A stretch of DNA of 64,000 bases from an uncultured delta proteobacterium (GCA_963745035.1 CAVUVW010000027.1:288001-352000); one strand, 5' to 3'. Counted from the first letter of the stretch, positions 17,489 to 61,153 are shown. The notes: a model not told the origin generated them from the letters alone. Numbers and translations are program-made.

Positions 17489-17565
17489 TGGTTGCGGGGC
17501 CGGGATTTGAACCCGGGACCTCAAGGTTATGAGCCTTGCGAGCTACCAGACTGCTCCACCCCGCG
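17489..17565 (-). tRNA. tRNA-fMet (initiator, CAT anticodon)
   Basis: CGCGGGG acceptor stem with C1:A72 mismatch, anticodon loop CTCATAA, GGTTCAAATCC T-arm, encoded CCA; 77 nt. Confidence 0.95.
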
Positions 17566-59122: not shown

Positions 59123-59341
59123 ATGACACCCGAGACGATCGCCCTCCTTGCTTCGATTTCCTTCGCTTTATTTGCCGTTTACGGCTGGCTGGGCTTGCGT
59201 TCTTCAACGCCCCTCACCGCCACGATCGTTTCCCTGGCGGCGCGCACGATCACCCTCGGCACCGCGGTGGCGCTGAGCGGCGGCGTGCCCGAGTACGAGC
59301 TGGCGGCCATGACCGTGTTCGCGATCGCGTTGGGGAGATAA
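59123..59341 (+). pseudogene. Truncated EamA/DMT transporter fragment
   Basis: IALLASISFAL..GLRSSTPLTATIVSL; only about three TM helices before the stop. Confidence 0.6.
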
Positions 59342-59427
59342 TCGCTTGGGCAAGATCATACTTGACGACTTGAAGCGCTAAGGCGTATCGATAGCCGTGG
59401 AGACTTTGCAGTTATTTAGGAGGAGCC

Positions 59428-59736
59428 ATGTGGTATCTCGTTTTACGCCGGCCGGTGCAGCCGCGCGAAGAATGGACGGTGAGCTTGGATGAGCACCTCG
59501 TGTGGATGAAGCAGCAGCACGAGGCGGGAAGAATTCTTTTCTCCGGCCCGACAACGGACCGGAAGTACGGCGTCTACGTTATCCGCGCTCCCAGCAAAGA
59601 GGAAGCCGAAGGAATCGCGGCGACCGACCCGTACACGGCGGCCGGATTCGCCGCGTTCGAATTGCTCGAATGGGAGGTGCATCAGATCATGGGGGTCGGG
59701 CCGTTTACAGCGGCGGAAATGCGCGCGCACCGATAG
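59428..59736 (+). CDS. YciI family protein
   Basis: EHLVWM..GRILFSGP..A.SKEEAE..DPYT; AGGAG SD. Confidence 0.85.
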   Translation: MWYLVLRRPVQPREEWTVSLDEHLVWMKQQHEAGRILFSGPTTDRKYGVYVIRAPSKEEAEGIAATDPYTAAGFAAFELLEWEVHQIMGVGPFTAAEMRAHR

Positions 59737-59800
59737 CGGTGCGCATTCGCGATGCGAGAGAAGCCCCGAAAATTTTTTTTGCATGGGTCACAAAATCATC

Positions 59801-59829
59801 TTGACACGGACGATGGACGGCGTTACGAA
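59801..59829 (+). promoter_or_regulatory. Putative sigma70 promoter
   Basis: TTGACA-17 nt-TACGAA (imperfect -10). Confidence 0.45.
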
Positions 59830-59833
59830 TTGA

Positions 59834-60150
59834 GTAGCCCCAAACTCCCAAGGGGCGGGAAGAGCGAAAGGAGCAGGCTGTTGGCGCTCTTCTGGAAACG
59901 GAGGTTTTATGGCGGGAGAAGATAGTCCACCGGGCCATGTAGGCCCGCTGGCGGCGGGCGCGGGCAGTTCGATCGAGTTACCTGTCAGCCATCGAGCTGT
60001 GTGAATCAAGCCCTCAATCTCTGCGCCAAGTGGCGCGAACCCCAAGGCGGGGTCACTCAGCAGGTTGGGCTTCCTCAAAAGCAGACTCGACACCTCGGCG
60101 ACGGGAGGCAAAATCGGACCAAGCCGGCGTAGCACGAGCAAGCGGGCTGC
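59834..60150 (+). ncRNA. Candidate large structured non-coding RNA (unassigned)
   Basis: Ends can pair (GTAGCCC/GGGCTGC); at least seven helices, GAAA and GCGA tetraloops; flanked by a promoter-like sequence and a terminator; no convincing long ORF. Confidence 0.6.
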
Positions 60151-60195
60151 AGCGATAAAAATCAAATAAAACTTAACTGGCGCGATGGCGTCAAC

Positions 60196-60237
60196 AAACG
60201 GGCGGACCGGTAAAAGGCTCCGCCCGTTTTGTTTTTT
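60196..60237 (+). terminator. Intrinsic terminator (probably bidirectional)
   Basis: AAACGGGCGGA..TCCGCCCGTTT then TGTTTTTT on the + strand. Confidence 0.8.
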
Positions 60238-60247
60238 GGCGCTGCGA

Positions 60248-60961
60248 TCAGCCTTCGCGAAGAAGTTTTCCGTAGTTTTCGATGGGCGCTTTGATGCCGA
60301 GGGTGTTCATCACCCACCAGAGGGAGGCGGCCGTGCTCGAGACCACCGGTTTGCCGGTGTCGTCTTCGAGTTCCTGTACGTAGCCGACCGAGCGCCATCG
60401 GCCCTGGATCAACAGGCTGTCCACTTCCGGGTACGCTAGAAACAGATCGCGGGCGACTTTATACGAGGCGTAATCGGGCAGCTTTACTTGATCGACCGGT
60501 TTGGCGACTTCCAGTCCCTTGATGGCGAGCACTTTGAGACCGCCGTCTTCGTAGTATTTCTTCACGGCTTGGTTGATGGTTTCTTTGTACGCCGTGGCGA
60601 TCACCGTCGTGCGAACTTTCAAGTGCTTGAGGCCTTCGACGGTCGCGCTCATCGCGGTGCTGACCGGTAAGCCGACCTGGCGCGACAGCTTGGCGACGAC
60701 TTCCTGTTCGGCCGCATAGCCGCGTTGAGTGCCGAGAGTGATGCCGCCCATGAGAATCGCGTCGCATTCCTCGGCGGCGAAGATGCCGAGCCCGGCGCCG
60801 AGCGCGTCGATGGCCTTGTTGAATTCAGTTTCCGTGTGAGCCTGGACGTTCAAGCCGGAGGCTACCATGGTGAAGCCTTTGGGTAGGATCAAGTCCCAAT
60901 CCGACGGTGTTTCAAAAACCGACGGCGACAGATATCCGATACGCGCTTTCCAGCCAGACAA
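60248..60961 (-). CDS. Arylmalonate decarboxylase / maleate isomerase (Asp/Glu racemase) family protein
   Basis: WKARIGYLSPS, ATAY..IN, ELEDDTGKPVVSS..ASLW..GKLL. Confidence 0.75.
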   Translation of the reverse strand: MSGWKARIGYLSPSVFETPSDWDLILPKGFTMVASGLNVQAHTETEFNKAIDALGAGLGIFAAEECDAILMGGITLGTQRGYAAEQEVVAKLSRQVGLPVSTAMSATVEGLKHLKVRTTVIATAYKETINQAVKKYYEDGGLKVLAIKGLEVAKPVDQVKLPDYASYKVARDLFLAYPEVDSLLIQGRWRSVGYVQELEDDTGKPVVSSTAASLWWVMNTLGIKAPIENYGKLLREG

Positions 60962-61153
60962 GTGCTTTCTCCTTACAGTCGATATCTACGGCAGTCCGCT
61001 CTTCTTATCCCAATAGGCAATTCAAGAAAAGTCCCGCCCCCTCGCTGGGACTTTCGAAGCGTGATGTCTGCGGTCGAGAAACCGCTAGACATGGCGCTCG
61101 ATTCCAAGTTAAGGATTTTGGCCGGGTGACGAGTTCAATAGGAGGACTTGGCC

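Follow-up and report, generated by a model that had tools for sequence, protein, structure and literature searches.

Several kinds of bacterial RNA combine a folded domain with a short open reading frame (ORF), or reach a comparable size without one. SgrS/SgrT and RNAIII/hld join an RNA effector to the mRNA of a small ORF in an independent, terminated unit, and their peptide, a functional product, has no fixed-distance coupling to the fold. OLE, ROOL, GOLLD and raiA are several hundred nucleotides long, multi-branched, strongly covarying, lineage-restricted and apparently abundant, and none of them, to our knowledge, is defined by a translated ORF. In the MgtL and MgtP leaders, the progress of the ribosome at proline codons, governed by EF-P, Pro-tRNA or Mg2+, selects the RNA structure, according to the portions of PMC12856214, PMC5299641 and PMC6460261 that deal with them. 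The portion of PMC12856214 on MgtL attributes pausing and ribosome destabilisation at low Mg2+ to proline together with acidic residues, and acidic, proline-containing sequences are defined as intrinsically destabilising in the abstract-level account of 10.1101/2021.02.02.429294. When EF-P is lacking, a pause occurs at PPG while the P site holds peptidyl-tRNA-Pro and the A site Gly-tRNA, as outlined in the relevant passage of PMC4140641, where PPD and PPN appear only among the pausing motifs.

Here we describe an RNA gene from an uncultured delta proteobacterium which shares features with each of these groups. Positions refer to the window, by which we mean the whole 64,000-nucleotide stretch of DNA that was analysed.

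Results

The RNA occupies positions 59801-60237 (+), within a gap of ~500 bp between an upstream YCII-domain gene (yciI, 59428-59736, +) and a convergent Amdase-family gene (PF17645, 60248-60961, -); the gap, with yciI on one side and a convergent gene on the other, agrees with a preliminary description of this DNA. The promoter (59801-59829, +) consists of a -35 element, TTGACA (59801-59806), a 17-nt spacer and a -10-like TACGAA (59824-59829), immediately preceded by an A-rich stretch. These boxes, which had been pointed out before, fall in conserved columns of the alignment, and TTGAC is equally spaced in 27/27 homologous loci with enough upstream DNA, while two more loci end at a contig edge. 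From the position of the promoter we infer a transcription start near 59836. At the other end, an intrinsic terminator (60199-60237, +) comprises a stem (60199-60226) and a T-tract. A 3' hairpin with a U-tract had been recognised at this end, and it covaries: in A3, our full-length alignment of 26 sequences, 95.7% of its cells are paired and six of eight pairs show compensatory changes. With an A-tract 5' of the stem, the terminator looks bidirectional and common to the convergent Amdase-family gene. Neither signal of the RNA was detected by a consensus promoter/terminator scan, which we ascribe to the criteria of the scan and not to an absence of signals. Taken together, the predicted promoter and terminator show the RNA to be a stand-alone transcription unit. 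Its length is about 400 nt from promoter to T-tract, and the earlier estimate of ~320 nt is thus too short.

Upstream of yciI, a hydrophobic ORF of 72 aa (59123-59341, +) is similar to no more than the beginning of a membrane protein of ~250 aa (cluster F11) that relatives encode at this position, and may be a truncated remnant.

The interior had been judged by eye to fold densely, and folding of the + strand is indeed better than that of dinucleotide shuffles (z -2.93; 0/100 shuffles fold as well). The - strand folds no better than its shuffles (z -1.08; 15/100 as good), and the numerous G-U pairs are compatible with the + strand only. A 125-aa ORF on the minus strand (59788-60165, cluster F16) was rejected as a candidate gene, with at least 90 aa open in just 5/28 loci and a fold at shuffle level on that strand. 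The proposed structure was evaluated in A3 against a control in which partners were slid by 1-3 columns, and against 500 shuffles. Paired cells amounted to 88.4%, versus 36-41% in the slid control; 39/63 pairs were compensatory, and 0/500 shuffles reached the observed values. Across the wider family, an alignment of 50 model matches (A5) gave 89.6% paired cells versus 24-41% when slid, with compensatory changes in 22/31 pairs. The elements supported by A3, all on the + strand, are two hairpins (P1 and P2), a long-range helix (LR1), a further hairpin and helix (Hc and Hd), a three-way junction with its two arms, a small 3' hairpin, and the terminator.

The 5' untranslated region (UTR) contains P1 (GCCCC/GGGGC, 59837-59856; 84.2% paired, 3/5 pairs compensatory) and P2 (GAAGAGCG/CGCTCTTC, 59859-59892, strands 59859-66/59885-92; 72.7% paired). 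The latter had already been drawn from the sequence alone, and compensatory changes in 8/8 pairs bear it out. These hairpins are not universal, P1 being missing from subfamilies with leaders of 12-30 nt. The loop of the 5' UTR hairpin carries a GC palindrome in 29/49 copies (GCGCGC 24, GTGCAC 2, CCGCGCGG 2, CGCGCG 1). Such a self-complementary loop, kept through GCGCGC-to-GUGCAC changes, could serve kissing-loop dimerisation or be a protein site. The window's own P2 loop (59866-59885) has lost the palindrome, which is present in relatives such as L038, L243 and L259. In the segment 59888-59908, the 3' strand of P2, CUCUU(C), can pair alternatively with the Shine-Dalgarno sequence GGAGG, after which comes UUUUAUG. 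The CUUC..GGAGG pairing before the ATG is the only 'terminator-like' site of the consensus scan (59889-59904), and is formed in 84.6% of cells with covariation absent; the CUCUU(C)/GGAGG pairing may constitute a translational on/off element.

Further downstream, GCCCGC-TGGCG-GCGGGC forms hairpin H1 (59943-59959), which is near-invariant and paired in 98% (A3) and 97% (A5) of cells. As H1 never varies, it has no covariation support of its own. This GCCCGC/GCGGGC hairpin, rather than the CGGGCC/GGCCCG hairpin of the preliminary description, is the one found family-wide; the latter does not vary among close relatives, whereas distant ones have lost it (CGAAC). CGGGC/GCCCG (59931-47) and H1 share bases and are mutually exclusive in close relatives, and neither covaries. 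Directly after H1 and inside the mini-ORF described below (codons 18-19), the 5' strand of LR1 (59960-59965) pairs with 60123-60128. All four pairs assessed in this helix are compensatory (4/4; e.g. AU 10, GC 9, CG 2), and it closes the downstream three-way-junction domain. A long-range pairing proposed earlier had its 3' partner correctly placed at 60123-28, but the covarying 5' partner is 59960-65 and not 59946-52.

Within the 3' portion of the ORF lies Hc (TTCGAT/ATCGAG, 59968-59996, strands 59968-73/59991-96), paired in 84.6% of cells in A3, with mostly one-sided changes, and in 77.3% family-wide (A5). What had been seen as a 10-bp stem here retains six pairs (59968-73/59991-96) supported by covariation. 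Helix Hd (59997-60084; CTGT 59997-60000 with GCAG 60081-84) encloses the three-way junction, in which covariation backs the closing stem AAGCCC/GGGCTT (60008-13/60067-72) and both arms (60023-27/60032-36 and 60039-43/60049-53), as originally proposed. For Hd and the junction helices together (A5 helices 3-6), 18/19 pairs are compensatory, and the junction strands CCUCAA and AAGG are conserved. Inspection of 20 divergent loci by eye showed them to have the three-way junction (CCUCAAC ... AAGGAAGG), as well as the small 3' hairpin and the terminator. The 3' region also holds an invariant GCGGGC motif (60142-60147), identical to the 3' strand of H1 and with A3 columns G316-G318 invariant, followed by an A-rich linker (60155-77) and the small 3' hairpin, (T)GGCGC-GATG-GCGTC(A) (60178-60193; 94.2% paired, 4/6 pairs compensatory). 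Two other proposed elements are not supported: a closing helix, 59834-40/60144-50, covaries no more than shuffles do, and a GCGA-tetraloop stem at 60094-60105 is paired in 27.6% of cells.

The gap was previously thought to contain no convincing protein gene. However, a 31-codon mini-ORF (MAGEDSPPGHVGPLAAGAGSSIELPVSHRAV, then TGA; 59909-60004, +) and its Shine-Dalgarno sequence, GGAGG (59900-59904, +), 4 nt 5' of the ATG, are conserved across homologues. Close homologues in the 26-sequence alignment share GGAGG, 4-9 nt, ATG and a frame of 29-32 codons. The Pro-Pro codons of the window's copy stand at 59927-32 (+) and are followed by Gly at 59933-35. We extended the comparison to 94 homologues, drawn from genomes other than three unpublished ones (see below): 49 model matches, and a second set of 45 comprising 40 of the remaining weaker order and class matches and five scan loci of the second-order family. 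An in-frame start ahead of CCN CCN is present in 94/94 (ATG 92, GTG 2) and a recognisable Shine-Dalgarno sequence in 93/94, the remaining copy (L291) having GGGGGU; in the first set, an out-of-frame Shine-Dalgarno sequence and ATG occurred in 0/49 and 1/49. No feature of the family is conserved more widely than the mini-ORF with its invariant in-frame Pro-Pro.

The conserved portion of the ORF consists of Met, 2-5 mostly acidic codons and Pro-Pro. In 46/49 copies the first Pro occupies codon 6 or 7; Asp or Glu is found between Met and Pro-Pro in 48/49 and makes up 71/215 residues there, Lys and Arg being almost absent. Pro-Pro is followed by G, D, E or N in 86/94 homologues (G 56, plus G in L291; D 20; E 6; N 4; C 4; K 2; I 1). 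Counted from the first base of the second Pro codon, H1 begins at +14 in 49/49 copies of the first set and, in the second, in 41/44 by pattern, the other three having the same register by eye. Every indel between the start and H1 is a multiple of three.

Across the wider family, Pro-Pro is encoded by nine synonymous codon pairs. This indicates selection at the level of amino acids, or at least of codon classes, and is an argument for translation. It bears directly on the possibility that the RNA is purely noncoding, the ORF being an untranslated by-product of conserved RNA sequence. Among close relatives such a reading is attractive, as TCCACCGGGC-N7-GCCCGC-N5-GCGGGC is near-invariant even at wobble positions. 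Family-wide, however, the synonymous variation of the Pro codons, a Shine-Dalgarno sequence and start in frame in 93-94 of 94 copies, and the confinement of indels to multiples of three make it highly improbable. With a conserved mini-ORF embedded in it, the RNA is not purely noncoding.

The constraint on the reading frame does not extend far. After codon ~17, frameshifts, an early stop or a lost stop occur in 5/26 aligned copies (plus L008 and L200); beyond H1 the ORFs are unrelated between subfamilies, total length varies from 8 to 62 aa, and stops are TGA in 31, TAA in 12 and TAG in 6 of 49 copies. Two copies (L240, L278; 8 aa) terminate right after Pro-Pro-Gly, and three copies of family f3 have short ORFs (12-30 aa), two of which stop inside H1. 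Codon 12 is NGC (G/S/C/R) and codon 14 CNN (L/P/Q/R), so the apparent peptide conservation in the H1 region reflects RNA constraint. These observations weigh on the proposal that the peptide itself is the product, the RNA being an mRNA for a small protein with an N-terminal motif (acidic, Pro-Pro-Gly) whose UTRs tune stability or translation. Conservation of the frame, Shine-Dalgarno sequence and start, and the retention of Pro-Pro through synonymous changes, would all be expected of such an mRNA. We nonetheless consider it quite unlikely, given the range of lengths, the unrelated C-terminal halves, the tolerated frameshifts, the variation of residues 12 and 14 as the stem dictates, the absence of any Pfam or NCBIfam match to the mini-ORF peptide, and the location of the most conserved, covarying part of the RNA outside the ORF.

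Two forms of recoding were also considered. Use of the TGA as selenocysteine or by read-through, the window's frame being open to 60169, was rejected because homologues use TAA or TAG (12 and 6 of 49) and post-stop indels are not multiples of three. For programmed frameshifting or hopping at Pro-Pro-Gly, a slippery sequence was absent, and a stop follows Gly in two copies only.

Homologues in related genomes, for which the preliminary description suggested a search, were found both by BLAST and by model scans. BLAST located the stretch in 21/61 related genomes, with a single copy in the window's own genome. A first model (R1) matched 31/90 genomes of the family and nothing else; it missed all divergent copies, including one adjoining the Amdase gene of G074 which we recognised by eye, and its 31/90 is therefore an undercount. 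A second model (R2), which includes the ORF hairpin, matched 81/123 genomes of the order (75/89 in family f1, 2/5 in f2 and 3/28 in f3) and 6/18 genomes of one family in another order of the class, but 0/114 genomes in 15 further families. A third (R3) gave one marginal match of 23.9 bits in 150 other genomes of the phylum sample. Strict scan filters mean that weak copies are undercounted in these figures, and the f3 matches, at 27-29 bits, turned out to be genuine. Two or three copies are present in some genomes. A DNA pattern scan of contigs yielded, among the 80 loci listed, 72 chance matches in GC-rich genomes and eight true, previously known loci; genomes carrying the eight are labelled 'Candidatus Binatia bacterium', 'Deltaproteobacteria bacterium' or similar. 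The unpublished genomes G005, G035 and G076 are included in the BLAST, R1, R2 and Amdase-orthologue tallies, and G005 also in A1, A2, R1 and the synteny count; A3-A5, the models R2 and R3 and the ORF tables were built without all three.

Of 28 close loci, 22 have the Amdase-family gene as an adjacent, convergent neighbour, while the upstream gene is variable (yciI in 12, dehydrogenase-like in 9). Seven genomes have Amdase orthologues of 80-88% identity without the RNA, the upstream gene ending 1-57 nt away. In four of these (G014, G003, G021, G002) a dehydrogenase-like gene stops 1-57 nt from the Amdase gene and in three (G106, G110, G107) yciI stops ~45 nt from it, the RNA being missing there. 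A functional tie to the Amdase-family neighbour, considered as a candidate, is weakened by these orthologues. Where same-genus genomes have no RNA beside the Amdase gene, a divergent copy is found at another site. The 20 divergent loci have no common neighbour gene: those found are unrelated (among them Metal_resist with tadA-like, pcm, aconitase, ThyX and TctC) and often convergent. The varied neighbours and the RNA-free Amdase loci indicate that the RNA is an independent gene and not the leader of any one gene.

The same evidence speaks to a role in cis, in which the RNA would be an MgtL-type leader or attenuator, acting through conditional read-through of the terminator into a downstream gene or as antisense to the Amdase-family gene. 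The frequency of the convergent Amdase neighbour despite a changing upstream gene, the co-directional tadA-like gene that follows divergent copies in one genus, and the CGGGC/GCCCG motifs in H1, 60142-47 and the terminator, which would permit alternative pairings, are all in keeping with it. It must contend, however, with 80-88% identical Amdase orthologues that do without the RNA, with 20 divergent copies lacking a common neighbour, several convergent with unrelated genes, with a strong, conserved and apparently bidirectional terminator, and with a distance of ~200 nt between ORF and terminator. We regard regulation in cis as very unlikely.

Some loci have peculiarities of their own. In the genus to which L233-L238 belong (G014, G003, G004, G019, G021, G022), the divergent copy is in every case flanked by a divergent Metal_resist-domain gene on one side and a co-directional tadA-like deaminase on the other; a cytidylate-kinase-like/BON gene follows the deaminase, and the T-tract of the terminator is weaker. 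In-frame stops were noted in the Amdase orthologues of G008:C21 (one TAA), G112:C14 (one TGA), G065:C2 (one TAG), G063:C476 (one TAA) and G108:C272 (two TAG), which may be pseudogenes or assembly errors. The G023 copy (L014/L046, G023:C648; L026/L028) diverges past ~60090, and contigs C648 and C14 have the 3' module at their ends, a pattern to be expected either from an assembly break or from an insertion in the RNA gene. Finally, the end of contig G100:C722 (L201) is a long perfect inverted repeat whose centre is the terminator that follows the Amdase gene; this is probably an assembly artefact.

Searches against Rfam 15 placed the RNA in no described family. At gathering scores, the sole match in the whole 64-kb window was a tRNA gene (17492-17565, -, 63.9 bits), with none at the RNA; for 59650-60350 at E up to 10, four chance-level matches scored 11-19 bits against cut-offs of 40-82. 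The class is thus absent from Rfam 15. That the RNA is not a tmRNA, RNase P RNA or SRP RNA, as argued from missing signatures, is upheld by the location of all three elsewhere in the same genome (tmRNA at C11:321993-322342, 188 bits; RNase P RNA, 312 bits; SRP RNA, 72 bits). The 6S model had no match genome-wide, a model which detects 6S in only 5/14 control genomes; the covarying fold is branched and holds an ORF, unlike the ~180-nt rod with a central bubble of 6S RNA. A literature search, with supplementary files outside its scope, found no paper describing such an RNA. The proposed designation of a stand-alone large noncoding RNA of an unnamed class therefore holds in that the RNA is stand-alone, structured and absent from Rfam 15, but it bears an ORF and is not simply noncoding.

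The stretch is also present in RNA libraries. In 19 RNA runs from 12 studies of soil and rhizosphere metatranscriptomes, 29-63% of sampled words of 59700-60400 were found, and these data sets include very small ones (3-44 million letters), some of them with no more than 3-17 million. Contigs from four runs of four studies, compared over 59300-61100, cover 59859-60205 with 99-100% identity; the Amdase gene and most of yciI are uncovered, and a single low-depth contig spans 59636-59876. Such assembled contigs speak to presence in RNA libraries, confined to the RNA, and not to strand, true ends or level, so that their termination at 60202-60205 in three studies is a weak hint only of the 3' end. 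As the flanking genes are uncovered, DNA carry-over does not explain the contigs. The proposed check against metatranscriptomes thus returned contigs from four studies confined to the RNA, which is apparently abundant in soil bacteria.

Discussion

We propose, with a probability of roughly 45%, that this gene produces a stand-alone, ~400-nt structured RNA which is also translated over its mini-ORF, and in which ORF and fold are mechanically coupled such that a pause at Pro-Pro gates the junction domain. The mini-ORF looks like a concentrated form of the pausing and destabilising sequences cited above, with a short acidic N-terminus followed by Pro-Pro-G/D/E/N. A hairpin starting ~11-14 nt from the P-site codon stands at the mRNA entrance of the ribosome. 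A ribosome would pause at Pro-Pro-X in the EF-P-dependent manner, the short acidic nascent chain possibly worsening the pause, and would then abut H1 while the downstream domain is still folded. On resuming elongation it would open H1 and, in most copies, LR1. Since elongation would unzip H1 and LR1, the folded and active fraction of the RNA would report elongation capacity at proline, whether set by the activity of EF-P, the supply of Pro-tRNA or Mg2+. Neighbouring genes are not shared, which is why the effector domain would be expected to work in trans or to influence the stability of the RNA itself. Pausing is here predicted from motifs studied in E. coli and Salmonella, and the K, C or I that follows Pro-Pro in 7/94 homologues runs counter to it.

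The main rival differs in what the pause is for. The mini-ORF may serve only to hold a ribosome near the 5' end and so shield a long-lived noncoding RNA against Rho or against decay that depends on the 5' end. The work would then be done by the three-way-junction domain, with nothing 'sensed'. Stalled-ribosome and Shine-Dalgarno-like 5' stabilisers are known in Bacillus, and a parked ribosome would account for conservation restricted to H1 and the ORF from its start through Pro-Pro. It would likewise suit the occurrence of RNA-only contigs in very small data sets. ORFs that end at or in H1, namely the two that end after Pro-Pro-Gly and, among the three of 12-30 aa, the two stopping within H1, cannot unzip LR1; parking fits such copies better than invasion of the fold. 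Parking, however, needs no specific residue after Pro-Pro, where G, D, E or N nevertheless prevails, and we hold it to be unlikely as an account of the family.

A bolder extension of gating by the Pro-Pro pause is that of a free-standing 'elongation sensor' RNA, whose fold (H1, LR1 and the junction) would be switched by the EF-P/proline pause and which would broadcast the elongation state in trans, as a new class of riboregulator or RNP scaffold. This is conceivable, though we think it doubtful. Such a sensor may dimerise to act, the contact being made by the palindromic GCGCGC/GUGCAC loop (29/49 copies).

Whichever mechanism applies, the RNA is a new lineage-wide family, found in 75/89 genomes of one uncultured soil-bacterial family as well as in a second order, at an abundance apparently sufficient for assembly from very small soil and rhizosphere metatranscriptomes. 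Its design brings together an N-terminus that is hard to translate, a fixed-distance hairpin and a long-range helix closing a junction, with no regulated gene attached. It may offer a compact natural system in which Pro-Pro/EF-P pausing is combined with an mRNA roadblock, and is a cautionary case against 'noncoding' labels for intergenic regions.

Comparison with known systems

Like tmRNA, the RNA is an apparently abundant, structured molecule of ~350-400 nt with a short ORF, whose peptide ends in Ala-Ala or Ala-Val in close relatives; unlike tmRNA, it has a Shine-Dalgarno GGAGG and an ATG, no tRNA-like ends and no model match. Type I toxin mRNAs (hok, aapA1), as characterised in the pertinent part of PMC6733600, are comparable in their ~300-400 nt, long-range pairing, ORF of ~30 codons and several copies, whereas the peptides of the present family are hydrophilic, variable (8-62 aa) and not conserved. 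In size, branching, covariation and restricted lineage the RNA resembles OLE, ROOL, GOLLD and raiA, but matches none of them.

With SgrS/SgrT and RNAIII/hld, the family shares an independent transcription unit with a terminator and a small ORF, and a promoter, terminator and translatable small ORF of its own, translation being predicted, would place it among dual-function small RNAs. It departs from them in that only a stall-type N-terminus is conserved, at a fixed distance from the fold. One trait of MgtL-type elements is present, in that a structured RNA contains a short ORF in which Pro codons directly follow one another. The RNA thus resembles the MgtL/MgtP leaders of Salmonella mgtA and mgtCBR in its very short Pro-codon ORF, and MgtL also in the acidic residues beside the Pro codons. 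An MgtL-type downstream regulated gene is absent: the window has a conserved terminator and a convergent neighbour, and none is shared among the 20 divergent loci. MgtL and MgtP are 5' leaders of the genes they control, whereas the present RNA has its own terminator and no conserved downstream gene; it also has a large covarying three-way-junction domain, and shares no sequence or Rfam similarity with them. By its design, it would extend translation-coupled RNA switching from leaders acting in cis to a stand-alone RNA.
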